A DNA stretch of 63,716 nt, the filler included, from Licmophora abbreviata (taxonomy: Eukaryota): assembly GCA_900291995.1 (NCBI GenBank). It is 9 parts of 9 records of this genome, joined end to end, with 100 filler letters (N's around TTAATTAATTAA, not from the genome) between each part and the next. Parts side by side here need not be neighbours in the genome. Positions count along the whole stretch, not along the records: positions 19,589 to 27,979 come from OLMU01001680.1; 8 more parts are not named here. The stretch is one strand, 5' to 3'. This document shows, piece by piece, positions 5,002 to 62,172 of the stretch. The notes beneath the pieces were generated by a model, which did no database searches, was not told where the DNA came from, and was given only the letters and a program-made list of their open reading frames with translations. Positions within the stretch are counted from its first letter, which is position 1; each line of letters opens with the position of its first letter. Made by a program: the position numbers and the translations under genes.

Positions 5002-7090
5002 ATGCCGTCTCCCAGAAAAGCAACCGATGTGGCAGATGTAGAAAATGGTCGACCGGAAGGACCAGAGGAATTGCGCTCGACTAGACGAACTCGGTCCCAG
5101 ATAGCATTCGTAAGATCCCCCAGCGTGGTGGACGGTGGGAACGGAACATCGGTCTCGATCTGTTATACGAATTATGTTCTCATCAGCTATGTCTCTCGTT
5201 TCTATTTTTCTCTTTTCTATAGCTCCGTCATTCTAGTGATNNNNNNNNNNNNNNNNNNNNNNNNNNNNNNNNNNNNNNNNNNNNTTAATTAATTAANNNN
5301 NNNNNNNNNNNNNNNNNNNNNNNNNNNNNNNNNNNNNNNNTTTTCTATAGCTCCGTCATTCTAGTGATTGTGGTGCCATGGGTGCGGGGCGGCGATTTCG
5401 AACCAAGGCCCAACACACGTTCCGAAAGGTCTGCTGTCCGGCACATGCGAAGAAGGCCTCAGAGTCGGAGGACCAGGAAGGTCAAGAGGAAAAGCGACTG
5501 CAATATCGCTTGGAAGCGACGAGACATGTGAGTTACAGGTGATATCGTTTCGAGTGGAAGGGGATCCACAACTGGCTTGATGACTCATTTGGTCCTCTAA
5601 TTTCCCAAATTAATTTCTCCAGACGAAAAAGAAATGGTATCAAATGTTCTGCTGTGGTATGGGTGCCAAAAGGGAAAGGAACGTCTCTCTGATCGGAGTA
5701 TCGTCGAACCAGAAGCTCGCTCAATACTTGCATTGGCTCTTCCGCATCAACTTCTTCTTTCTCTTCTCCATCTGTTGTGTCCTTTTCTTCGCCTTGACAT
5801 TTCTCTTTGCGGCACTCATTTTGATTGCGGGCGGAGTGGACGCAACGTGTGTTCTCATTGGGGGCGAGCCTTTTAACTCGCATGGGACCCCTTTTGCGGA
5901 CGCATTTGCGCTAAGTTGGACGACCTTTAGTACAGTGGTAAGCTTGAAAGAGTGTCGGCCTATCGGTTATTGTGTCCTTGTCAGTTGTCTGACCTCACTC
6001 TTGTCCATTGCTCTGGAATCTATTCACTGCCTCATAGGGGTACGGGAGCACGTATCCCGCATTGAGTCCCGAGACGAACAGTAAGAGCAATTGTCTTTTC
6101 ATTACGGCAATCTGCTCCCTTGAGTCATTCATCGGGGTGCTGTACTCTGGTTTCTGCGGAGCCATTCTGTTTGGAAAGGTACTCCGTATCCAGAGCCACG
6201 CCCAAGTCATCTTCAGTGACCCAGTCGTGATTCGATACGGAAGTGGAGTGGAAAACTCTGTGGACGACGGTATCGACGAGGGCGAACACGATGACGAGCC
6301 GAAACACATTCCTTGTCCCATCCTTGAGTTTCGTATCATCAATCGACTCTACAACGAAGTGGGGGGAGAAATCATGGACGCATCGTTGAATGTTGTAGGT
6401 GCTGTCGACGCGAATGACGTTGACCCGACTGTCCGTGATGCAATGGACCCCGAACGCGTGCGGTATCTCCGCGCCCACCACGGAGTCAGTCTTGCCGGAA
6501 GCTCGGACAGGAGCTCGGGCACTACCAGCGACGCGAGCTCCGAGTCGGGGCTCGAAGGACCGTCATCTCACTCGAGTAGATATAGCAAGATGATGGATCC
6601 GCTCGCATCAATTCTTCATGGCGGACACAAAGATCACCGGCTCGTAGATGAGGAGCCATCATCCCGCCTTACTAGCAAGCGAGTCTTCTCCAAGCTGCTT
6701 ATCGAAGCGAGCGAGCACCCATTCTTCAAGCGTGTCTGGGTAGCTCGTCACATCCTGGATGACCACTCACCAATTCTTACTCCGCGCGCCCGAAAAGCGA
6801 TTCGCAAGAATCATGGGTACTGGCCCGACAATCTCGACAGCTACGAGGGCGTCAAAGATAGCTTGCAGTTTCACCAAATTCTCGTTAGTCTGAGCGGCGT
6901 CTCCAACGTGAGCGCCTCGGATGTCTATGCGCAAAAGATCTACGATGCTGTGGATGTCAATGTTGGATATCAGTTTGTTAACCTCCTATACCGAGATGTC
7001 GACGGAAGTCTGAAAATCGATACAGACCTCATCAACGATGTTAGGGAACAGAATGGCGGCGGCGGTGAGCCACTCTTGTTCGATGTTTAA
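5002..7090 (+). CDS. Inward-rectifier (Kir)-like potassium channel, 4 exons, spanning the first assembly gap
   Basis: Introns 5110-5222, 5528-5622 and 5938-6037 restore a continuous frame (once the 28-bp duplication across the gap is collapsed). Two TM segments flank DAFALSWTTFSTV|GYG (K+ filter TVGYG). The cytoplasmic Kir-type region includes VIFSDPVVI, ILEFRIIN, RHILDDHSPI, AQKIY and GYQFVNL. Confidence 0.8.
5241..5340. other. Artificial scaffold spacer N44-TTAATTAATTAA-N44
   Basis: 100-nt spacer with a six-frame stop linker; bases 5213-5240 are repeated at 5341-5368. Confidence 0.98.
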
Positions 7091-19488: not shown

Positions 19489-19588
19489 NNNNNNNNNNNN
19501 NNNNNNNNNNNNNNNNNNNNNNNNNNNNNNNNTTAATTAATTAANNNNNNNNNNNNNNNNNNNNNNNNNNNNNNNNNNNNNNNNNNNN
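19489..19588. other. Artificial scaffold spacer
   Basis: N44-TTAATTAATTAA-N44; truncates the 5' ends of both flanking divergent genes. Confidence 0.98.
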
Positions 19589-21779
19589 TGCCGACAAGAA
19601 ACGACGAACATTATCCTCACCAACTTCCGCAGGCATCCATCCAAGTCGCCTTAGAGACTCTGGAGGAGCACGGATTCTTTCAGACGGACGTGACACAGCC
19701 TTTTGGACTGGGTACCAAGTGTGCCAAGACCTATGTGACGCGTTGCCTCTTGGGCAATTCTGGGTCTACCTACCGATATTTAGGAATGCGTATGTTTGCC
19801 TACCAATGGGATGACAACAGGAAGTCGTCGGCCGACTCTGATGGTGGCACGACGGCACTTACGTCTGCAATATCAACCATGTTTCGACTTAATACACAGC
19901 TAATGGAACGTACAGAGTATCACCTGCGAGAGTTGGACACGAAGCGAAGGAGTCGTGGAGCCGAGCAAACGAGAGGGCGGGCGGTCTTTGATATTGCACT
20001 CATCAACCGCATGGAATATAGTACCAACCTCAAGAAAGAGCCCATGATGGGAGATGCAAGGTGTTCTGTTTCGTGGCATGCTGACTCGAGTCTGGAACAC
20101 TATTCGTCCATTGCTGTCCATCACACGATTCGGAACCACAGTGCCGACGATGCTGCAGGATCGTGGTCGGTCGCTCTTCGCGTCGCCCATCACGCAGAAG
20201 GACCGACTGCGTCTCATCGCGACACGGGCGGTGGTGAGTCCTCCCTGGTCACTGCGACCCCACCAATTTCTGTTTCTCTTCCCTCGGGAGCTGTCTACTA
20301 CCTGTTGGACGACTTCAATCACCATCACCAGCACACTGTGCTTGCGTCAGGGGGCGGCGCCGGAGTCCGTTTCTCGTCAACGCACCGCTTGTTACGCGAA
20401 AGTCACAATGTGAGCTCATTGTTGGAGAGGTGCCGAACTGTCTGTGCTACCTTTCATAAGAAAGGACCCAAAGTCTGGCGTTCTGAGCAACTCCTCATCA
20501 CTGACATGGAATCGGAGTGGCTGAGGCAATTTTTCATCCAAGGTCAACAGCACTACGATCTACTCTGGGAGGTGAGTCGTCTCATGCGGGGGACTGTTAC
20601 GCACATATCATTTTATGCATTCTAGTAGGACACTGAGCACTGCTATCCTCTTCTGCACAGGCATGGGGTGAGCCGATGAACCGACTTCTTGGCTACTGGA
20701 GTCAGTTGGAATCTCGAACGAAACAGGTCGTCGATTTTCTTCGAGCTGCCGCAGAGGGGCGATGCATGTCAAATGATAGCGCACCGTTAAGGTCGGATCC
20801 TTCTCCTTCTCGTCGAGAACGCAAGCTGCGGGAAAGAAGAAAAAAGGCCGCTTCGTCTATTGAAGAAATTATGGGCAGGCGAGTCAATCCATCGGAAATG
20901 GAGAGGTCAAGTGCATCGGAGTATATCTATGAGCCTCTGGCTACGCTGCTTCATGAACGGGCGTCAATGAGGGAGAAATGGTTAGAGCGCGAGACAGACG
21001 CTGCTTTTTGGAGCTGGATCCTCGGAATCGCCCGTTGCCCGTCCCGTTCCAGTTCGATGCGACTGGTGACGTCAAGACAACGAACGAGTGCGGCATCTCC
21101 CCACTACAAGGGTCGCCAGACGCTCTTCGCGACTTGGCATGTGCGCTGCGATCATGCGGTTGCGCCTTTGACTCGAAAGATGCAGCAGAGCTTCCCGAAC
21201 TTATAAACTCCCAGAGTAATGCATCTGACAAGGATAGTTGTCATATAGGGGTGGACGAGCACAATGTGGCGATGGATTGGGAAGGCTGGAGCAGCCGTAC
21301 ATTCGGTCTCGAAATGCAGCGACCATGGGCAGAGCTTCTGCTGGGTGGCAACAAGAAGGTCGAGACGCGAGCATATGACTTGCCTCCACAATTGTTGGGG
21401 CGCCGAATCGATATTCTGGAGTCATGCAAGGGAATGCCCGGGAAGTCATCCTTGCAAAACGTTGTCTCAATTGATCGGTCGACGGAGGAGGAGCCTGTGG
21501 TGAAAAGGGTTGGTTGGTGCACGTTCAAGCGCACTATGCGTTACCAAGACAGACAGGCGTTCGAAGCGGATGAAGACGCTCACTTGGTAACGCGTGAGAA
21601 CGGCTTCGGATGGAAGGATGACTCAAAGTGTGGTCATATACGGATGGGCCGTAGGCGAGCGAGGACACTACGCCCCGTCATCAGCTGATCAACTAACTGC
21701 GATCGTTCGGCGGAAGCGCTCTTTGTTCGAACTCTTCTGTGTCGACACCAATACATCGATTACAATTACGACGGCCTGA
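19589..21779 (+). CDS. FTO: FTO 2OG-Fe(II) nucleic-acid demethylase with C-terminal ASCH domain; 5' truncated, intron 20572-20660, frameshifts near 21007 and 21625
   Basis: VTRCLLG..GSTYRYLGMRMFAYQW, ALINRM, VSWHADSSL (HxD), YYLLDDFNHHHQHTVLA, RFSSTHR, MESEWLRQFFIQG; then GLEMQRPWAELLLGGNKKVETR (ASCH GxKxxExR) and YGWAV. Confidence 0.85.
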
Positions 21780-21908: not shown

Positions 21909-24900
21909 CTACCTTGATCTTGAGACCCGTACCTCAACAGAGATGACATCGCGGTCTATGGCAAGTTCCCATTCACCACCTCTTACGTCTCGGCACCCAA
22001 GCTCTGCTGTCACAACATACACTCCTTCGTCGATTAAACCAGGTAGATCGAGTTGAAAGAAAAATCTTCCCCCGTGTAGAAGTGGCCCGTCGTCGGATGA
22101 AAGTACGGGGGCGAACGATCGACCAGGCATCATGCTCACCATTTTGTCCTCTCCGTCGTCTCCGCCTCCATCGTCTTCAACGTGCAGGGGGCGATGAAAG
22201 GCTATCTTTGACCAGACTACGACTCGCTGAAAAGAGAGAGTGGCTGACTGGGATATTCCCATCGGCAGAATCCCACGAGCGTTTAGCTCCAATGGTACAC
22301 CGGGATAGACGACAAGCGACTCCCCCCTGTCGAGTTTCTCGTCCGTCGCTTGGTCACTTCCCGGAGAAAGCCGAAGCTGCGACGGCTGGCGACGCGACCT
22401 GAGGGCAAAGTCGACAGGTATAGGTGGTGGCGTCCGAAGAACGGCATCGAGAATGTCGGCCATTGCCGCCGCTCGATCTGAACGATTCATTGATGGCTCA
22501 AGCTCCTTCAAGACAAGATCTTGCAGTTTGTTGAGCAGCATCATCGACGGGAGCAATTGATCGCCTCTCGGCTCAAGCCCTTGTACCGCGTCATCGATGT
22601 TTCTCTTCGCCCCAGATTTCTCTAATAGCAACTTGTGGGATGTTCTTCCTATCCAGCCGCAAATGGAATGGCATGTTCGCAGCGAACTGCGCGACTGCTG
22701 GCGAAGAAATAGCCCGTGGCGCTTGTAGACGGCGTGAAAGCGAGAAGCAAGAATGTAAAAGCACTTCTGAACCTTTCGGAGATGGAGACCAGTGCGTGTA
22801 TTCAGCTTCGGCGTTGCATTCATCAACCGAATCTCCCTGCTTATGTAGCGCAGCGCCAGACAAAGTTCAAGAAAATCAACACGGAGCCTCAAGAAATCCA
22901 CTTGAAAGGAAAATCCATCGCCAAAAGAACTGAGAGATCTGATGGCTTCCAATCGCGACAGGGCAGATGCGAGTTGAGTCAAGCCAAATGTGAGCCCATC
23001 GGGGCCACGGAGCACAGATCCCTCGCCTGCTGCGAATGTCGAAAGTGTGCTCAGCCACGAGTATGACTCTTCGCTTGATGCCGACGTGGCAGCACTACCA
23101 TATAATCCACAAGCTGCGTCAAAGTTCCCGGTCACCAAAGCGAAGCGTGCCAGTTTGTAGCGGTCCCAGGGGCTCGTGATGCGTTTTTTTGTCAACTCTA
23201 TAACGGCGACCTGCGCGTCCTCGTGGACATCGCATGCCACTAGATACGCTTGTCGACATGCACAAAGAGCTCTCGCGATTTCCATAATGCAAGCTGTGTC
23301 TTCTTCGTCATTCGCAATACTTAATAACACCTTCTGCTTCCATTGCGCGACCAGCGGTTGTGAATTGGCAATCATACTTATCAGTTTACACGCCCTCCGC
23401 TTTTCTTTTGCTTGAGGTTTCTTCTGCAGCACCGATAGAAGTAGATTCATCATGGATATTGCAAATGGTTGCGAGAGTCGAGATAAAGTGGAAACGACTT
23501 CTCGCGTGTCTTTGAGCCGTGTGGCTCCGTGTTCATTCTCCGTGACGAATTCGATACTTTGTCGGACTGCGCTCGCATAGCTTGGCAATTTCTCATTGGG
23601 ACAATACGCACAGGCAACGACAAGCAGCAACGAAGCCGCTTGAACAATGCATTCGTCCGGGCACTGTAGTAGATGTATCGCACACCGAATAACCGACTCT
23701 TGCTCTCGACTGCGTTCTGTCCGCGACTCTTTCACGTCACATTTTATTTCATTGCCTTGATACAGAAGGAAATAGAACAGAGATCGAGCAGAAACAAGGA
23801 GCGAAGCAACGAGGCACCGAGAGGTCGGAATAACATCGTTCTTCGAATCTTTCTCTAGGCCGTTGACATAGTCTTCCAGCGGTCTGACTAGAGATGCGAT
23901 TGATCTTAATGTGAAAGAATCATCAGAGTAGTGCCGAGACTCATTGTACCGGAGAATGAACTGATGAATCAGGGTTCCTCTAGCATTGAGACAACAGACG
24001 TTGTTCGACGACCCAAGCCCATCGGTGCACGTGCACGTAGACCGATCTTCGACAGTGCGCTTGATGAGAAGATCCCAGTCTTCAAAGCTACTGCGCTCTT
24101 CCTTCCGCTGTACTGCTACATTCACTAGAGCACGGTCCGCCCAGCACCCGTCGGCGGGTCTCATCGCCAAAACGCCGAAAGCATAAAGCGCCGCACGCAG
24201 ATGTGGAATAGCGCCCTCAACGAGCTTCGTGTCACCTCGTGGCCAGTCATTCGTGGTATCATATTCGGGAACGACAAGGTGTTCAGCGACTAGTTTCACA
24301 AGCGTCACCCGATGCGCATAGTTTAGTTCAAAGTAGCGGGAAAGTTGCAAGTCGAGAAACTTCTTGGCATGTGCCCACGATATGCTGTCCTTTTCTTCCA
24401 AAACACGAGCCGTAGCCGGAATTGCCTCTGCGGACGCAACGGGTGCAACACACATACTTATGACATGAAGTAAGTCGACTTCGTGTGGGTGTGCCGGTCG
24501 TACGGAGAGGAACGCGCTCAACCCGTTCTGCACAAACGATTGGAACGCACGCTCGCGAGGACCGAACGTAACCGACCCAATCTCGCCAAATGCACCAGCA
24601 TCATAGAATTGAATAGAGTTTTGCAACCTTTCTTCGAGTTCCATTTCGAAGAACAGTTGAAATCGGCTTGCCTGAAGAGATTCGGAGGAGCCCCCGTTGA
24701 CCGCTGGATCCATCAGTGACAGAGAATTCCGCAACACGAAGAACTCGTTTCCAGTCGAAGAAGGAAGTAGAAAAGCAAGAAGGAAAATTGATGAAGCCCT
24801 CCAAACCGTTCCAAGTTCTTCTTCTGTCATGAAAGGAAGAAGCTCCGCTGATTCAGTAAGAAGCTAGTATAAGTCATACCATGATTTCAGGATGCAGACG

Positions 24901-25308: not shown

Positions 25309-25686
25309 ATGCGCGCTCTAATATCCGATATCATCGTTTGGAGCTCGCTCATCGCGCGTGCACGCCTCGATTCAAATCACAAATCCCGCCTCTTGTTTAG
25401 AAGGTCGCTATTTCCAATGTTCAAATGATCGACTCGTTACTTACGGCTGCGAGGAAACTGCTGCGAGCCAGTAGGAGACAGCATGCTCACCTGCTCCTTC
25501 GCCTTCATCGACGTTCGCTTTTTACACGACATAGGTTTTGTGGAATCAGGAACTTCAAGTGTCTCGCCTGTTGTGTCAAGTCCTCTACCAAACGCCGCGC
25601 ATCGCCGTCCATTTTTTTCTTTTGTCAAGACGCCCGATCAACCCATCACGACATCACGTCACACACCAGCGCCTTGTAGTGCGACG

Positions 25687-27765
25687 ATGACGATGATAGT
25701 ACCGCGACAACCGTGTCTACTCTTTCTGGGTTTCCTGGTCTGCACATCTGCGTTTGGATTTGTTACCCGGAATAGAGAATCATTGTCCTTTGTGGCTCAA
25801 TCTCGTTCTCGGGGCATTCTGTCGCTTTCGGCCAAGAGACGACCGAATGCCGATGGCGAGGTTGGCAGCGGTGACAACTGGATTGAACGGGCATTTCCAG
25901 TCGAGACGGGGGACGGTGACGACGCCGCTGAACTAAAAAAAGTCGAGGATTATAATCTTGGGATATCCGGTGAATCGTTTGGCACGGGGCCTCTCAGTCG
26001 AAGAATGTACGATGCCATCATGCAAGCCAATGGAGGTGAAGAGAACATGAGCCCTGAGCTCAGGAAGGGATTCACTTTGTACGCCATGGACTTCACTGCT
26101 AAGGAGGCGACTCGTGCCGCATTGAAAGCGAATGGACTTAACATGACCATCGAACAGAACATGGAAGATGAAGGCATGTGGGGGGAGGTGGACTCCGTTC
26201 AACTGCTTGACCCTGCAACGAATGAACCAATCGGTCCACTGTACGACTCGACCGAGGAATCCATTGAGCAATGGACTCCTGGTCAAGCGTTCAACTTTAT
26301 TGTACGGCAGGTCCCGGCCAAGATACGGGAACTCAGCTTGGAAGAACTTCTAAATTCACTTGACCCGAGTGGCGAGCTCCGACAACAAGCAGAGGAGGCA
26401 AACTGGACTCTGCCCGATGAGGATATCAATTCACTGCAGGATCTAGCAAACGAATCTATTCGAAGAACAAACAGCTCTCCTAAAGAAGCCACCGATGAAT
26501 CACACGCATTTGGAGGCCTCAACAAGAGAGGCTATCAGATTATCAAACGCGGCGAGCTCTCGCGGGATAGTGTAAACGCAGATGGCAGTGAAGGTCACAA
26601 GACCCTTATGCACGTCATGGATGCTCTTGTGTCACATGGAGCTTTAGTTGTTGACCTAACAGATGGAGGGACGACCTACAAAGATGCTTTAAAGATGATG
26701 GCCATGTGGAAGACAGTGGGCGAATTTTTCGAATCAATGGACGGCGACTCATGTCCATCTCTCCCTGGTATGATTTCCGCAATCGATTCGTGCCCATCCG
26801 CTAAAGTGGGATACGCTGACTATGACAGCGGATCGATGCAGTTCCTCGAAACTCGATTCGAGCGAGAGGGTGGAATACTTCCCGCGGAAGCGAAATCGGT
26901 TCTGGGAGAAGGCAACATTCATGTTCTGCGAAATGCATTTGACACAGTTTGTGACGTTGGAAAGGATGTCGCCCGGATAGCCACAGCTGCTGCCAGCACG
27001 GAAGCTGGTGCGTTCGAGGGCCTTGGGAGCAACCAGGATGAAGGCGAGCCCACGCTTTCTGGATTTTCACTGGTGGACTCTGGTGAATCTGGTGCTCGAG
27101 CATCATATTCAGCGGCCCTCATGGTGGATGAAGTGATTGATGACGGAAAGCGACTGGTATCCAAAGAAATCGAGCACTCGGAAGGCCCAGTCAGTATGAC
27201 TCCTCTCCGTCTCTGTCGCTACGCTGACAAATCGAAGCCCGACAGCGAGGACGAGACCGCGACTCCTTTCCGCGAAGTCTTTGGGGCACACACTGATTCG
27301 ACCTTCATCACCGCTATTCCCGTGGCGAACGTCAGCGGGCTAGAGGTGTTCGACGAAGCCGAGAGTAAGTGGTATCGCCCTGAACTCGCTGCCCGTGGCC
27401 ACTGGGAACGAGAACAGGAGAAACGAGGACATGATCCCCGTATGATGAGCGAAACCCTGCCGGGAACCGACGATGGAGAAAAAGCCGTTGAGCTTCCTTG
27501 GCATTGTCGTTACGTAGTTCTTCTGCCGGGCGAGTTTTTGCAGATCGTCACTCGCAACGAAATTTCAGCAGCGGTTCACCGCGTTGTTGCGGTACGAGAT
27601 GCGCCACCTCGACTGAGCGCGCCAATACTGTTGAGAGGTCGCCCAGGCACAAAGCTGAATGTAGAACGATACCTAGGGGAGTTAGACGTTGCTTTGCTCC
27701 AGGAATGCGATGGCATGACAATGGACGAGATCCATGAAGCAAGCCAACCGTCTTCATTTCAATAA
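25687..27765 (+). CDS. Plastid-targeted 2OG-Fe(II) oxygenase (IPNS-like C-terminal domain) with long unknown N-terminal region
   Basis: Signal peptide ending TSA-F; LRLCRY, FGAHTD (HxD), VSGLEV, PGEFLQ, AVHRVV (H), RLS (RxS). Confidence 0.75.
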   Translation: MTMIVPRQPCLLFLGFLVCTSAFGFVTRNRESLSFVAQSRSRGILSLSAKRRPNADGEVGSGDNWIERAFPVETGDGDDAAELKKVEDYNLGISGESFGTGPLSRRMYDAIMQANGGEENMSPELRKGFTLYAMDFTAKEATRAALKANGLNMTIEQNMEDEGMWGEVDSVQLLDPATNEPIGPLYDSTEESIEQWTPGQAFNFIVRQVPAKIRELSLEELLNSLDPSGELRQQAEEANWTLPDEDINSLQDLANESIRRTNSSPKEATDESHAFGGLNKRGYQIIKRGELSRDSVNADGSEGHKTLMHVMDALVSHGALVVDLTDGGTTYKDALKMMAMWKTVGEFFESMDGDSCPSLPGMISAIDSCPSAKVGYADYDSGSMQFLETRFEREGGILPAEAKSVLGEGNIHVLRNAFDTVCDVGKDVARIATAAASTEAGAFEGLGSNQDEGEPTLSGFSLVDSGESGARASYSAALMVDEVIDDGKRLVSKEIEHSEGPVSMTPLRLCRYADKSKPDSEDETATPFREVFGAHTDSTFITAIPVANVSGLEVFDEAESKWYRPELAARGHWEREQEKRGHDPRMMSETLPGTDDGEKAVELPWHCRYVVLLPGEFLQIVTRNEISAAVHRVVAVRDAPPRLSAPILLRGRPGTKLNVERYLGELDVALLQECDGMTMDEIHEASQPSSFQ

Positions 27766-38553: not shown

Positions 38554-41500
38554 TTAGCGTCGCCTGCGTTTGTTGCCTCCCCCAGAGCTTCCTCGACGAT
38601 TTCCCCGACGATCGTCATCGCCGACGTCGTCCGACTGCCGCTTGCGTCTATCATCTGCCATGGCCTCTCGTTCCATGTCTTCCCAATCCATGCCTTGCTC
38701 CTCAAGATCTTCGTCAGCATCAAAGTCTGACTCGTCCTCCGACTCAGAATCGAAGTCTTCCGATTCTTCCGATTCTTCCTCCTCCTGAGATATTGACGGG
38801 GTAGTCGCGCGTGAGAAATGTCCCTTACGCAAAGCACCAACGAGTCAAACCATGACGACACTTACCGATTGACCTCCAGCCTTCTCCTCGTCGAATTCCG
38901 AATCATCGTCTTCGTCCTCCTCTTCCTCTTCGTCGTCCTTGCCGAAAAGCCGGAGGAATTCCCATCCTGCCTCCTTCTCGGTGACCTCATCATCCTCTGT
39001 ATTCATGTAGAAACGATCGTCGCCCTGCACTGTTCCCATGATCTGTTTCCAGTTGAGGTTCATGGGGCCTTGCGTGTACGTGATCTCCATATCCGTGAGC
39101 CAATCCTGGGGGCAAACACAACACAAAAAATGTAAGAAGAGATACCGTCCAAAAGAAATTTCAAGCGCAGAATCCTCACCTGAATGCTGTCCTTGTCGCC
39201 ATTTGGGATCATGTCGATTCGCCACGTTGGCTTGGAGAAGTCCTTGTTGATTAGAACAATGTCAAACGCTTTGCTCATATACGTCACGCGCTCAAAGTGG
39301 ACATGATCGACGTCCGCAAGATCTACGACGAAGAATGGCGTTTCTGTAAGATTCACCAAACAGTTCAAGGTCGGCTGAATGAAAACCATTTCCTTGTGCG
39401 GAGTCCCATTGAAGCCAAGATCCCTGTACGGGACATCGAATTCGACAGTGTAGTTGTTCTTCTTCGCCACGGCGTCGACCTTCTTACAAAACTCCTTGAA
39501 CGCTTGGTTGAGTCTTTTTCGGAGCTGCCGCTCTCGTTGCTCGTCGTCCATCTCGTCAGGGTCGTACATGCTGCGTCGTCCCACGTCAACAGTCTGGCTG
39601 GCATCGACGACCTCTGTGAAGAACTGGATGTCCTTTTGCTTCTTCTTGCCGACCATGATTGGATTCTTTAAGTGAAAGTGAATAAGCACCATGATTTCGC
39701 TTTCGCATGGCTGATAGACGGCGTACTTGATATTGTTGTACATAATATCGACGATTTCGGATCGAGTTGAGATGAAGCGCAAGCCATTCGTGTGCGCTTC
39801 GAGGTTCCCTTGGGTCTTTCGTCCCGCAAAGACGGGACGCATCGTCAGGTCGGAAAGGCGAGGAACTCGTTCATTCCTCGTGCGAACGAGTTTTTCCTGT
39901 TCGACGAGGTTAGCCTCTTCTTGCTCACGTAGTTCCCTCGTGCGGGCGCGCTTCCGGAGCTCGGATATCTGGCGATACGCCTGCCACAATCCGAATAAGA
40001 AAAACAAAACGATTTGAGAAAAAGCGGAATCAAACACCCAGATTGAGCCAAGGATAAGCGTACCTGCGTCAAATTGTGACTATCGAGACTCCTGAACGTA
40101 AGCTCCCGAATGAAACAGGCGTAAGGGGCGTATTTCTGCACGAGTTTGGCGGTGTTTGCAGGCGCATCCTTCCCCACCGCCAATCCAGCAGTGTAGAAAT
40201 TAATGCGGAGGTACGTAGCAGCATCTGGATCGGGTAGCACCACATTTTTGATTGTACTAATGTGGAAAGGCACAGGGTTTCCGTTGATAGGAAGAATCAC
40301 CGCTTGATTTGCCATGTCAACCTTGACTTGATTTGGTTGCACATTGTCAGGGTAGTTCTTCGTTCGAGGGTACGTGTCGAGCTCTTCTGCCTTTTCCGAC
40401 TCGCCATCTTTGCCACGATTTCGCGCGTTGACTCTCGCCAATTCGCGAAGACGCTCCTCATTCCGTCGTGTCATCAGATCAATCTGGCGGTGCTCCCGCT
40501 CGACCACGCCTTCTTGTGCCTCGACTGCAGCGTCGGCGTCCTTCGCCAAACGAGCCGAGGTGCGCTGTCGCGTAGTCTCCTTGGACACCTTGCGCGCAAA
40601 TTCCTCGTCTCCGTCGGGAGCATCCGGAAGATCCTCCGGTTCATCATCATCTTCTTCGTCGTCTTCGTCATCGTTAATTGTGTACGAGATATCAGTGAGG
40701 TTCTTGTTAAGCTTCGTCATGACTTCGGCACCGTCCTTCGTCACCACTACCGTATCAGACAGCAGAAGCGCGTAGCTCGACAGCGATTTGACCTGGAAAT
40801 TGTAGTGGGTAGAGAGAGGTAAGATACATGTGCGTCAATTGCAGTCCCTCGATTCTGAACCCGATCGTCACTTACCGCACTCTTACTGCTGACGCTAGAC
40901 TTGGCGCTCTCGGGCAGGTCGACGTCATGAAAGCCCAAAATCAACGAGAAAACCATCCCCTTTCGAATCGTCGCTGGATTTTTGGACGATAGCAGTAGAT
41001 TACCATCGCGAAAGTCAAGGCCCATCGATCCCCCCAAGGTCTTTGGTAGCTTTCCCACCAAATGCTCGTTCCCCGACGAGTTCAGATAGTTGACGGCCGC
41101 CTTGTAGACTCCCTTGATTGGTCTTCCAGGCGTCATGGCTTTGAGGCATTCGTCCTGCAGAGCGAGTAGCGTCTCGTAGTTCTCATTCACGTGCTTGGGA
41201 GGATCGACAAGAAAGGTCCGAGCAATGTTGCTACAATACATTTTGTAGCGAGCTCCAAGCGACACCGTAATGATATCGTACTGCAGGTTTTCCTTCGTCG
41301 ACTGGGCAGACACCTTGATATCGTACTGGCCACCCGATTGAACAATTGGAAAGTAGCACGAGCTTACGTCTTCGGTAGGTATCTTCAACTTGATCGTTGA
41401 TGGATTTTCGATCATGGCGTCAATCTCAGTGGAGAGAGCTTCGTGGGTAATCTTGACTTCGGAGTCAATGATTTCTTCGACTCTGGGAATGCATCCATGT

Positions 41501-42228
41501 TTCATAATCTTGTTGCTCAGCACGGATGATTTCTTTAGTGTGTCAAGTTCGCCTTCATCTTTGACGGCCATGACGAGACTTATGCCAGTCAACGCGTCGA
41601 CGACTTCGACATTGTCAGCCGAATCCAGTTTCGCTTCCCACCCAGCCAAGAGACCTCCCCCTCCCTTGTTCGATTCACGCTCCTTCATGAGCACCCCAAC
41701 GCGGTGTGTATTTTCTTGTCCCGAAGACGTGGCCTCCTGGAGAAGCCGGTTGTAGTTTTCCGCATTGCCGTCGGTCTTATTGCGTAAGAGCAGGTTTATA
41801 CCCTTGATGGACGACGTCGTGGGGGCTTTGTCTACAGCCGACCGGAAAAAATCAATCTTCTTCTTGGTTCCCAAAATAAAGCAGTTTCCTTCCAGTGTGA
41901 GGAGTAGCACCGTATCAGGAAGCTCGTATCCAAAAAGATAGTGGTGCAACACGACGCTCTTGAGGTAGAGGTCGTCCTCGTTGAGCTTGCCGCGGTGCAA
42001 GCAAAGACACGTCGCATTGCCCCATACAGCCTCGGAACTTCTGTAAAATCAAAAACAGTTTGTTGTTTCGTAAACAGGACGGAGGGTTTGGTGAGGTGCG
42101 TGCCACTAGAAAGAAAGGAAAGTAAGTGAAATACAACGACAGTATCCTTCGTACCTGTGCTTGACAAAATGAGCATGGATCTTTCCGAGGCGGTCGTAGA
42201 ACCGATCCACGTTCAGTTCTGCTTCCAT
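38554..42228 (-). CDS. SPT16: FACT complex subunit SPT16, multi-exon
   Basis: YLFGYELPDT, YFPIVQSGG, GARYKMYCSNIARTFLVDP, PVPFHISTIKNV, LEAHTNGLRF, LIHFHLKNPIMVGKKK, HVHFERV, acidic tail GMDWEDMEREA. Confidence 0.96.
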
Positions 42229-47090: not shown

Positions 47091-48478
<1,388 letters not shown>

Positions 48479-51924: not shown

Positions 51925-52405
51925 ATCTTTCTCTTCTGTTTCACCTGGCTATGTTGAACCCAAAACCATCAGGAGCGACACCTTAGCCCTCAACCACAGT
52001 CTATTGTAACCGCCGATTGGTCGACTGCTATGTGGGGTCGAGTGGTCTGCACCGCCGGTTGCGGCTCCTCCTTGCAGTTGTGTTTCGAAAGATCTTTTGC
52101 GTTTTTGCTTCTTCATCGTCGCCGGCCGGAGGTCAGTCACGAGTCGAAAGAGCGCAGGTACATATCCCGTCCTTAATTCTGTAGTAATTAATGTTGAGGT
52201 TTTCACCACATCGGCAAAGCTGTCGTGGATGACGTCACACGGTTTGGCGCGAGCATCTTTTCTTCTCATTTCACAACGGAACTTGATGTCAATGAGATCC
52301 ATGAGCATCAAGCAATACCACTTCGTTGCTCAGCCTTCTCCCCACGAGGAGCTCACTCTTTGCATTAGAACCCGTTTGACGTGTGTCGAATACTCTGAAA
52401 TAACC

Positions 52406-53940
52406 ATGGCTAGTCTCGGTCGGTCCATTGCAGGAGCGCTGGATCGCTACTTTTGCATCACCGAGCGTGGGTCGACTTTCGGAACCGAGATCCGCGCAGG
52501 AACCGCTTCGTTCCTGACGATGTCATATCTGCTGCTTGTCAACCCCCAAATCATGACTCAAGGTGGCGTCAGCCATGAAAATGCAGTTTTGGCGACCGCT
52601 CTGTCGTCCGCTGTATCTAGCATAATTGTTGGAATCGGGGGTAACCTGCCGTTCGGACTTGCTCCAGGTGTTGGCCTCTCGGCCTACCTGTGCTACGGGC
52701 TCGTTCTTGCTGGTATTGCGACTCTACCGGAAGCACTGGCGGCTTGTTGGATGTCCGGAGTTCTACTGGCCATCTTCTCGCTTTCCGGTTTGTCTCACTT
52801 GATCATGCGCCTTGTACCAAGGGGAATTAAACTTGCCATTGTCGTCGGAATGGGCATCTTGCTATCAATGATTGGTATGGTCTCTGTCAACCTCATTGTT
52901 GCCAGCGACAAGACTCTCGTTGAGCTAGGAGACTTGTCGTCATGGACGCTACAAGTATCGCTTTTTGGAGTGATTCTAGTTGGGTCGCTCATCTACCATG
53001 ACGTGAAAGGGGGTATTCTGATTGGTATTGCGGTACTGACCCTCATATTTTGGGTTACATTGGACGGGTTCCCCGATAAGATCTGGGAGCTCCCAAAAAC
53101 AGACGGCGAACAATACTTGGACCTTCCTGTTCTTTGGAATCTTGAGAAAGCCAGTGTTATTTATACTGCCGTTGGAGCCTTCTTACTAATTGCACTTTTC
53201 GATGTGTCTGGCGTCATGTTTGGTCTTGCTTCGGTAAGTATTCCAAGACAAGCGAATACAGCTGTTCACATGGGAACTCACACCAAGCATACCGGCTCTT
53301 CCTCCATTAGCTGTCAGGCCTCATGCAGGAGGATGGTTCGATTCCGAAATCGCTGTGGGGCTTTCTGGGCTCATCAGCTGGGACAGTTATTGCCGCGTTC
53401 CTTGGCAGCACACCCATCATTGTGACTGTCGAGAGCGCATCGGGGGTGAAAGAAGGCGGGAAGACAGGCTTGACAGCCGTGGTGATCGGCATATACTTTC
53501 TCATATCGCTGTTCCTTTCTCCACTCTTTGGCGCCGTGCCGGAAGAGGCGACTGCACCAGTGTTGATTTTGATTGGTGCGCTCATGATGGGCGAATCGAG
53601 CAAGATCGATTGGGAGAGTATGGACAATGCGCTGCCCGCTTTTCTAACGATCGTTATGATGCCGCTCACATATTCAATCACCAACGGCATGGTGTTCGGT
53701 ATGGTGATGGCATTTGCATTCTACATTACAACCGGCTCTGCCTTCCGAGACATCTTTAAAGTCATTACCGGGACGACGGATTCGGCCGGGGCTCGTAGCG
53801 AGACTGAGAACTGGAACAATCGAGAGTCGGAAGAAGCAGTCTTTCTGTCTGTTCGCAAAACGACACGCCGGGCAGTTGAACAGGTCGCAGGGAACGAGAC
53901 GGACCCACTCCGCCAAACTGAAAATTATGGAGCTGTCTAA
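52406..53940 (+). CDS. AzgA-like NCS2 purine (adenine/guanine/hypoxanthine) permease; intron 53234-53310
   Basis: ERGSTFGTEIRAGTASFLTMSYLLLVNP, NLPFGLAPGVGL, FDVSG, VESASGVKEGGKTGLTAV, PAFLTIVMMPLTYSITNG. Confidence 0.92.
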
Positions 53941-60670: not shown

Positions 60671-61022
60671 CTTCCGTATCGTTTGCTGTTTTGTAACCCA
60701 ACGGAGAATGAATCAAATCTATTGAGTCCCATATGACGTCATGTGTCGGGACACAGATTGTGTGCGGCTTGATGCCGCCCGACAAACAAAAAGTCGACGC
60801 TTGGCACTTTCAGATTTGAGGTCGCGACGACGCCGATCGCGACTCGTTTCATGTGTCAGGAGCAGGTATAGCAATCGGACGCAAGCCCATTCAATATAAT
60901 CTTTGGCCCTGCCTTCCAAAGCTTTTTTGGGAAACGTCGAAGATCTAGAGATTCGGGACTATTTTGACGAGGAAATCATGCCCCGAACACGAGGTGATGG
61001 CGACGCGCCGACAAAGTTCGTC

Positions 61023-62172
61023 ATGCGACTGAAGGTGTCAAGGTTCTCTGTATTGCTCCTATTTTTGTTGCCTTCCACCGTATTTTGCTCGTCTCATGCC
61101 TCCTGGGGAAGTCGAGTGACAGCCAGGCGGCGAGGCGTAGTCCGAGGAAACGCCAGACGGGCTAGCCACGTCCTGCCCGTGTCATACCGGTCGCAGGGTC
61201 TCAATTTCGACCAACGCGTCGACACCGAGGAAGTTCCTTGGCACCGAGATAAACGGTACCGACGTTGGAAAGTTGATTTTACACCTCAGTCGCCAGGAAG
61301 GTATTCGCTGACTTCCCAGTTGGTCATTGCAAATGTACTTGTTTACGCCCTGCAAGTGTTCTTTCCGTCCATCACCAATATGGGAATTAAGCTCTCCGAC
61401 CGCGTTCTTGCGGGGGAGGAGTTGTATCGGCTAGTGACCCCCATGTTCCTGCATGGTGGACTGACGCATCTGTTGACCAATACATACTCGCTGCAAGCAG
61501 TAGGCCACGATGTGGAGCGGTATTTTGGGGGTGGTCGGTTCTTGGCAACTTATCTTGTTTCGGGCGTCGCTGCGAACCTTGTCAGTGCAATCAAGACACC
61601 CAACCCGTCATTGGGAGCAAGCGGGGCCGTGTTTGGGATTGTGGGGTCCTATCTGGTTTTTCTCAATCGTAATGCGGTAAGAGCACGTTGAAAAGAGCAA
61701 TGTATTTGAGATTATGCCTGTATCTGAACTCATGAACATGCGCCATGCCTACTTTAAACATATTTAGGATATCTTCGGAAAGCGCGGTGAATATATGCAA
61801 GGTGCTGTCTCACGAACCATCATGATGAATCTTATTCTTGGTGCGATGAGTCCCATGGTTGACAATTGGAGTCATGTGGGTGGTGCGGTGGCAGGTGGTG
61901 TCATGGCGTTCTATTTTGGGCCTCGACTCTTTGTCGGTGAGTTACCAAGTGGTGACCGAACCATTGTCGACAGACCCATCTTGCGATTGCCGAGGAGCCT
62001 TGAGGCAATCCCAGAAAAGATCGGAACGCGGCTTCATGACATGAAGACGAGACTGACTATCGAGACATTTAAGTCTGAAAGGCCCAACAACAGACCCTGG
62101 AGAAAAACTCGCAGTATGGACTATCGTCGCCGACGTTCAACTCCCGACAAGTCTGTTCGCCCACGTTTCTAA
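61023..62172 (+). CDS. Rhomboid intramembrane serine protease; intron 61677-61767
   Basis: ELYRLVTPMFLHGGLTHLLTN, GASGAVFG (catalytic Ser), DNWSHVGG (catalytic His). Confidence 0.92.

Follow-up and report, generated by a model that had tools for sequence, protein, structure and literature searches.

A further orthologue of the algal FTO-ASCH fusion in Licmophora abbreviata: a probable FTO-family dioxygenase gene with a C-terminal ASCH domain, interrupted by two single-nucleotide frame breaks

FTO proteins bearing a C-terminal ASCH domain have been reported in several algae by Tung et al. (2015, Mol Metab, PMC4354923), where the fusion served as a domain-fusion clue and the binding of mammalian FTO to TRIP4 was documented by co-immunoprecipitation and yeast two-hybrid assays. 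Iyer et al. (2016, PMC4738411) cite this TRIP4-FTO link and predict that ASCH domains discriminate modified bases such as N6-methyladenosine (m6A), and Sanchez-Pulido and Andrade-Navarro (2007, PMC2241624) place FTO in diatoms and Ostreococcus and report no homology for its C-terminal part. A preprint (bioRxiv 10.64898/2026.02.27.708502) sorts ASCH domains by their octapeptide into GKER, GK[T/S]R and GKE-not-R groups and describes the removal of N4-acetylcytidine (ac4C) from tRNA by 19 of 19 tested ASCH proteins, including TthASCH, EOLA1 and TRIP4_ASCH, the octapeptide Lys and Glu being essential for this activity. Here we analyse a gene of the same architecture located at positions 19590-21779 (+ strand) of a 63,716-nucleotide (nt) stretch of DNA, hereafter the window, from the Licmophora abbreviata assembly GCA_900291995.1. 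The gene lies at the start of a contig (OLMU01001680.1) and its parts are arranged in the order FTO catalytic domain, FTO C-terminal domain, variable linker and ASCH. We assign a probability of about 0.85 to its being one nuclear gene of a diatom-like stramenopile that codes for a dioxygenase of the FTO family with ASCH at its C-terminus. Whether such a fusion had already been described was left as a question by the preliminary description of this DNA, and the answer is yes: the architecture is already published (PMC4354923) and the window gene is a new orthologue. Our full-text literature searches found no paper characterising or assaying an algal FTO-ASCH protein, and of the three papers retrieved in which FTO, ASCH and algae occur together, only PMC4354923 describes the fusion.

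The gene is spread over four + strand stop-to-stop open reading frames (ORFs; 19537-20625, 20637-21206, 20957-21688 and 21591-21779) because it is interrupted by an 89-nt GT-AG intron and by two 1-nt frame breaks; the four pieces noted earlier are therefore confirmed, with the refinement that the first split is an intron and not a frameshift. Homologues of the catalytic piece with lengths of 574-2000 amino acids (aa) served as reference, 146 having been found and the best 120 taken, and all counts given below out of 120 rest on these. The best of them, P0001 (752 aa), is 69% identical over the catalytic part. As the gene starts at a contig joint (19490-19589, the motif TTAATTAATTAA with a run of N on either side, one of eight such joints in the window), its 5' end is missing, a loss of about 85 N-terminal residues relative to P0001. 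All parts of the gene given below are on the + strand. The truncated exon 1 (19590-20571) covers the FTO catalytic domain and leads into the FTO C-terminal domain. Its predicted iron ligands are the HxD motif (20077-20085) and a second His (20332-20334), and the R..R motif for 2-oxoglutarate occupies 20368-20388. Exon 1 is followed by the 89-nt intron (20572-20660, GTGAGT...CACAG), across which the joined reading is colinear with P0001, and by the first part of exon 2 (20661-21008, frame 0), which encodes the FTO C-terminal helical domain up to frame break 1, a T5 run at 21005-21009 where one added T restores the frame. The end of the FTO C-terminal domain and the variable linker (21011-21271) as well as the N-terminal two thirds of ASCH (21272-21625) are read in frame 2, the latter including the octapeptide GxKxxExR, which reads G-N-K-K-V-E-T-R at 21347-21370. 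Frame break 2 (21626-21629) has one base too many in comparison with an environmental contig, and beyond it the C-terminal third of ASCH (21630-21779, frame 0), with its invariant R..RS motif kept, runs to the stop codon at 21777-21779.

The catalytic part matches FTO_NTD (PF12933) with 201.9 bits (E 1.6e-59, cut-off 27) and covers the 275-position profile from 22 to 273, because its first 21 positions correspond to the missing 5' end. FTO_CTD (PF12934) gives 21.5 and 22.7 bits on the first and second ORF pieces, each below the cut-off of 27 because the intron and break 1 cut this domain into three; the same model reaches 64-85 bits in ten intact fused homologues, with which the window gene is colinear. 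In the match to human FTO structures (E 3.4e-30), the HxD and R..R motifs and the second His fall into register. These residues, H230, D232, H314, R326 and R332 in P0001 numbering, do not vary among 77 fused homologues and are also found in the window gene. Read through its interruptions, the window gene retains 85 of the 86 invariant and 95 of the 110 near-invariant columns of these 77 proteins; one invariant and seven near-invariant columns are lost with the cut N-terminus, and the changes at the remaining eight near-invariant columns were judged conservative. These alignments show the FTO part to be complete in its predicted catalytic residues, both those of the HxD...H iron triad and those of the R..R motif that binds 2-oxoglutarate.

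The joining of this FTO part to ASCH was followed in the relatives with a version of the window gene read through by script with an X at each break, the ASCH part of which was searched against the 120 homologues. A homologous C-terminal domain is present in 90 of these 120 long FTO proteins, in alignments that cross break 2 and are colinear across both breaks. Fused gene models include those of Cylindrotheca closterium, C. fusiformis, Nitzschia sp. Nitz4, N. inconspicua, Pseudo-nitzschia multistriata, Ectocarpus and Phaeothamnion, and three fused homologues (P0035, P0066 and P0071) are transcript-derived MMETSP ORFs. At the level of sequence, the fusion is thereby shown to be one reading frame in relatives, which lends support to the single polypeptide of FTO catalytic, FTO C-terminal and ASCH domains put forward in the preliminary description. 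The alternative of two genes, in which FTO would terminate at the frame-0 stop 21204-21206 and the Met codon 21272 would open a stand-alone ASCH gene, could draw on the position of this ATG just ahead of the ASCH core and on the stand-alone proteins of the same ASCH subtype, of about 150-190 aa, that exist in databases (e.g. in Cyclotella). However, the end of the FTO C-terminal domain is found in frame 2 past the T run, as had been proposed, and is colinear there with the homologues; the Met at 21272 is not conserved in them, a separate ASCH gene would not escape the break at 21628, and the fused state of the 90 homologues, transcript-derived ORFs among them, also speaks for a single gene. 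We therefore hold two separate genes to be very improbable.

The survey of orthologues also showed that the presence of the domain, which had been expected of diatom relatives, stands for the 90 proteins mentioned and fails for some diatom FTO proteins among the 30 of 120 without ASCH. In eleven of these 30 the FTO C-terminal domain is followed directly by a conserved basic tail with a final F or Y, and the other 19 end elsewhere, about a dozen of them halting in the linker as seen in their printed last 40 residues; those halting in the linker may be truncated models. In a FastTree phylogeny of the FTO parts the window gene stands beside P0001 (support 99) within a large ASCH-bearing clade, the outgroup rows (brown algae and Phaeothamnion) are ASCH-bearing too, and the tree needs at least five trait changes. 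With ASCH present in both this clade and the outgroup, the fusion looks old in ochrophytes with several losses, and it appears to be ancestral to diatoms and brown algae.

Two side observations concern the same set of proteins. The tree contains a clade of 16 FTO proteins (support 100) without ASCH, many of which halt in the linker region, and which may represent either a paralogue lacking ASCH or systematically truncated gene models; the proteins concerned include P0037, P0050, P0053, P0058, P0059, P0067, P0073, P0076, P0083, P0086, P0094, P0097 (Seminavis robusta), P0100 and P0104. The basic tail, several K/R residues followed by a final F or Y, occurs in 64 of the 90 fused and 11 of the 30 ASCH-less proteins, and in several stand-alone ASCH proteins as well. 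Its carriers include P0002, P0004, P0035, P0036, P0042, P0061, P0087 and P0107; the window gene and P0001 are without it. This conserved tail may serve in nuclear targeting or RNA binding.

As to the identity of the C-terminal domain, Pfam ASCH (PF04266) gives 15.4 bits (E 0.031, cut-off 21.2) over residues 118-161 of the 243-aa frame-2 piece 20957-21688, and the fourth ORF piece matches no Pfam family. The model is passed by the closest relatives of the window domain, P0121 (24.8 bits), P0134 (25.3) and P0135 (25.4), and also by P0042 (26.3). In one scan of 36 proteins, 5 exceed the cut-off, 7 are listed with lower scores and the other 24 do not appear in the list; the 36 comprise ten full-length fused homologues, eight of them not listed for ASCH and one below the cut-off, and a precomputed Pfam ASCH match exists for only 1 of the 120 homologues (P0042). 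The Pfam model thus misses the domain in most fused homologues, and public annotations consequently name these proteins simply FTO. An exhaustive HMMER search with the third piece retrieved 355 proteins at E <=1e-3, many of them stand-alone proteins of 150-190 aa, and alignments of such proteins were turned into two profiles (A1 and A2) that were searched against the PDB. All 15 matches at E <=1 are ASCH proteins, ASC-1/TRIP4 being the best (E 2.2e-4, a modest value), and the others being TTHA0113, the Zymomonas ASCH protein and EOLA1/CXorf40. The fold was assessed on a proxy, P0163, 47% identical to the window piece, and not on the broken domain of the window itself. With the model of this protein (pLDDT 91.6), every one of the first 19 Foldseek matches listed is an ASCH protein (best E 7e-6, TM about 0.5), the leaders being ZmASCH (7e-6), TTHA0113, CXorf40A/EOLA1 and TRIP4. 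The ASCH identity claimed from the sequence alone has thus found its profile matches, confined to ASCH among solved structures, and a fold search led by the same family.

The GxKxxExR signature is kept in 86 of the 90 fused homologues; its Lys, Glu and Arg are strongly conserved in the family, and further invariant residues include a His, two Ser and a Tyr. From sequence and from the proxy model, the C-terminal domain is classified as a predicted divergent ASCH of the GKER type, neither YqfB-type nor YTH-type, whose closest solved relative by sequence comparison is TRIP4/ASC-1. Assignment to the YqfB type (GK[T/S]R) was rejected, the sixth octapeptide position being Glu in the window and in the 86 relatives and YqfB reaching only rank 26 in the fold search (E 0.13). 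A reader of the YTH/EVE type was likewise rejected: YTHDF2 appears only at fold rank 29 (E 0.16), and neither the Pfam scans nor the PDB profile searches gave a YTH or EVE match. As a separate observation, the same ASCH subtype is also joined to other partners: in diatoms it precedes a domain of the RmlD/NAD-dependent epimerase type, in P0183 it follows a C5 cytosine DNA methylase domain and in P0214 it precedes a DIOX_N/2OG-FeII_Oxy oxygenase, and proteins with other fusions also include P0158, P0261, P0264-P0266 and P0268 (Thalassiosira sp.).

Upstream of the T5 run the FTO C-terminal domain is read in frame 0; the homologous reading resumes downstream in frame 2, where the ORF 20957-21688 is stop-free into the start of ASCH, and the frame-0 ORF 21591-21779 supplies the domain end after a 1-nt shift at 21626-21629. 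The essential elements of this layout, namely one more T needed at the T5 run, an open frame leading into an ASCH-like start with its octapeptide, and a second 1-nt shift near 21625, had been read from the sequence in the preliminary description and agree with independent DNA, which came from short near-identical contigs of four marine metagenome runs belonging to two studies. A search of sequencing runs listed six with this sequence, all of them marine metagenome DNA with small shares, and no RNA run. One contig from run X1 (262 nt, 20975-21235) carries one extra T behind 21003 and is otherwise identical to the window, and one from run X4 (217 nt, 21486-21703, with four other differences) has one base fewer at 21628. 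Over the contig-covered parts no indels other than these two were reported, alongside 10 substitution sites, and both are exactly the changes that restore a single reading frame. The homologues, for their part, stay colinear across the two breaks and have precisely one residue at either position. An exact-match scan of metagenome contigs with the 30 bases adjoining break 1 gave 0 matches. Introns as the cause of the two breaks were rejected, because every frame-restoring GT-AG candidate removes conserved residues or yields a non-homologous peptide and also because of the single residue that homologues have at each break.

The fused protein could in principle be produced from the DNA as given by programmed ribosomal frameshifting or RNA-level correction at both sites, and the T run at break 1 would offer a possible slippery site. 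Nonetheless, the difference is present at the DNA level in the environmental contigs, relatives encode the protein in one frame, and the mechanism would have to produce two unlike shifts, one +1 and one -1 in sense; this is the most improbable of the explanations considered. It is more likely that the two 1-nt breaks derive from an error or a broken allele than that they form part of the biology of the gene.

Several observations weigh against a single FTO-ASCH gene as we read it. Pfam ASCH remains below its cut-off on the window piece and on 9 of the 10 full-length fused homologues scanned. The gene as given is not one open frame, two frameshifts within it also look like a pseudogene, and break 2 is outside any homopolymer. 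The metagenome support amounts to a single contig per site at a depth of 2-3, and the X4 contig, with its four further differences, must come from a close relative (about 98% identical) and not from the same strain. In addition, no second frameshifted gene was seen among the 126 other window ORFs of at least 110 aa that were scanned with Pfam, a limited check made without homologue alignments. A generally indel-prone assembly was rejected as an explanation on the same survey: the splits found in the genes for ALAD, rhomboid protease and SPT16 (the last with two splits) fit canonical introns of 83-91 nt. With these splits explained by introns and no second frameshift in sight, the assembly is not visibly indel-prone.

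The points about the frameshifts also speak for true inactivation of the gene, which would then be a pseudogene or, in a diploid diatom, one broken allele; the intact metagenome form would in that case represent the other allele or sister strains. This explanation gains from the occurrence of two independent frameshifts within one gene when no other ORF of the 126 shows one, from a break 2 that is no homopolymer slip and from a break-2 contig that belongs to a relative. It has to contend, however, with a homologous reading that contains no in-frame stop and no other damage, with the single invariant column missed, which falls in the cut N-terminus, and with an X1 contig that is otherwise identical across its 262 nt over break 1. 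Inactivation is regarded as unlikely, albeit the most serious of the alternatives. For the breaks themselves, a sequence or assembly error is the probable origin and a real lesion or a broken allele the less probable one.

The intron-split genes mentioned above are delta-aminolevulinic acid dehydratase (ALAD; 47417-48475, +), the rhomboid protease (60900-62169, +) and SPT16 (39063-42048, -); the GT-AG introns of these three genes measure 84, 91, 83 and 83 nt, similar in size to the 89-nt FTO intron. A xanthine/uracil permease gene (52010-53937, +) consists of two overlapping ORFs in different frames that cover profile positions 4-260 and 271-385. Its junction offers no single clear intron candidate and could be an intron or another frame break.

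With regard to function, the FTO domain would oxidatively strip N-methyl groups, of the type of m6A or N6,2'-O-dimethyladenosine (m6Am), from single-stranded RNA, and the ASCH beta-barrel, held on a variable linker of about 75 residues, would act in cis on the same nucleic acid. Our first choice for ASCH, a tentative one, is a binding or modified-base recognition module that may recruit or position the substrate. ASCH could possibly be an eraser in its own right, e.g. an ac4C amidohydrolase working through its Lys-Glu dyad, a role that we rank second. It is tempting to go further and to speculate on stramenopile FTO-ASCH as a two-headed RNA eraser, in which oxidative removal of N-methyl groups would be combined with hydrolytic removal of the N4-acetyl group from cytidine in tRNA or other RNA; we consider this doubtful. 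If true, the protein would unite in one chain what mammals have as the FTO-TRIP4 pair, implying that the mammalian complex couples both activities. A complex prediction between the FTO part and the ASCH part of P0001 returned a score of 0.00, with alignments not used and controls not folded, and bears neither way on a docking of the two domains. The fusion has already been used as a Rosetta-stone clue to the mammalian FTO-TRIP4 interaction; therefore, with the architecture in print and exploited in this manner, the window contributes just a further orthologue, which is damaged or mis-assembled. What remains of interest is the role of ASCH beside FTO: since GKER-type ASCH proteins including TRIP4 are described in the preprint as removing ac4C, the natural fusion is a convenient one for testing a coupling of demethylation and deacetylation. 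Draft assemblies such as this one fragment the gene.

Concerning the surroundings of the gene, the window is a chain of short contigs, in which order and orientation across joints are meaningless and genes at contig ends, FTO for instance, are truncated; the TTAATTAATTAA motif marking the eight joints starts at 5285, 19533, 28024, 34614, 48644, 54035, 59098 and 60615. A 984-aa open frame on the opposite strand (21909-24863, -) converges on the 3' end of the FTO gene at a distance of 130 nt and scores 29.1 bits against the Integrator complex subunit 7 helical bundle. Farther along the contig of the FTO gene, some 3.6 kb past it, a 778-aa open frame (25429-27762, +) shows a weak match to 2OG-Fe(II) oxygenases (25.1 bits, cut-off 23) in which no single stretch passes.

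Among the systems described so far, the closest to the window gene is the algal FTO-ASCH of Tung et al. (2015), which has the same order of FTO catalytic, FTO C-terminal and ASCH domains and is found in marine algae and not in vertebrates; the passage concerned gives the architecture only as a bioinformatic lead, and the window copy differs in being 5'-truncated and carrying two frame breaks. Vertebrate FTO (3LFM, 6AEJ) shares the double-stranded beta-helix with HxD...H and R..R and the helical C-terminal domain, but it is without ASCH, and mammalian FTO binds TRIP4 as a separate polypeptide according to PMC4354923. The ASCH domain of TRIP4/ASC-1 (8ALZ, 9KYK, 8YEW, 2E5O) is related to that of the window family by profile matches of E 2.2e-4 to 2.9e-4, by a fold match, by the QPWA..L..G.K..E.R start and by the GKER octapeptide type. 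On the other hand, the fold alignment shows only about 14% identity and the profile match spans only the first 60-67 positions. TRIP4 also differs in its N-terminal context, which includes a zinc-finger, and its structures, from the entry titles, show binding of double-stranded DNA.

The stand-alone ASCH proteins TthASCH/TTHA0113 (2DP9), ZmASCH (5GUQ) and EOLA1 (5Y7D, 9KYI) match with Foldseek E values of 7e-6 to 5.5e-4, the profile aligning with TTHA0113 in both domain halves, and the octapeptide Lys, Glu and Arg that the 2026 preprint describes as essential are conserved in the FTO-ASCH family. They differ in being small, independent proteins of prokaryotic or animal origin, and the two Tyr probed in TthASCH align, in our own reading of the alignment, with Trp in the FTO-ASCH family. 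Finally, YqfB, the ac4C amidohydrolase of E. coli (9KYF, 9KYH), has the same PUA-like ASCH beta-barrel but belongs to the GK[T/S]R type of the preprint, with Thr replacing Glu, and shows only the weak fold match given above.

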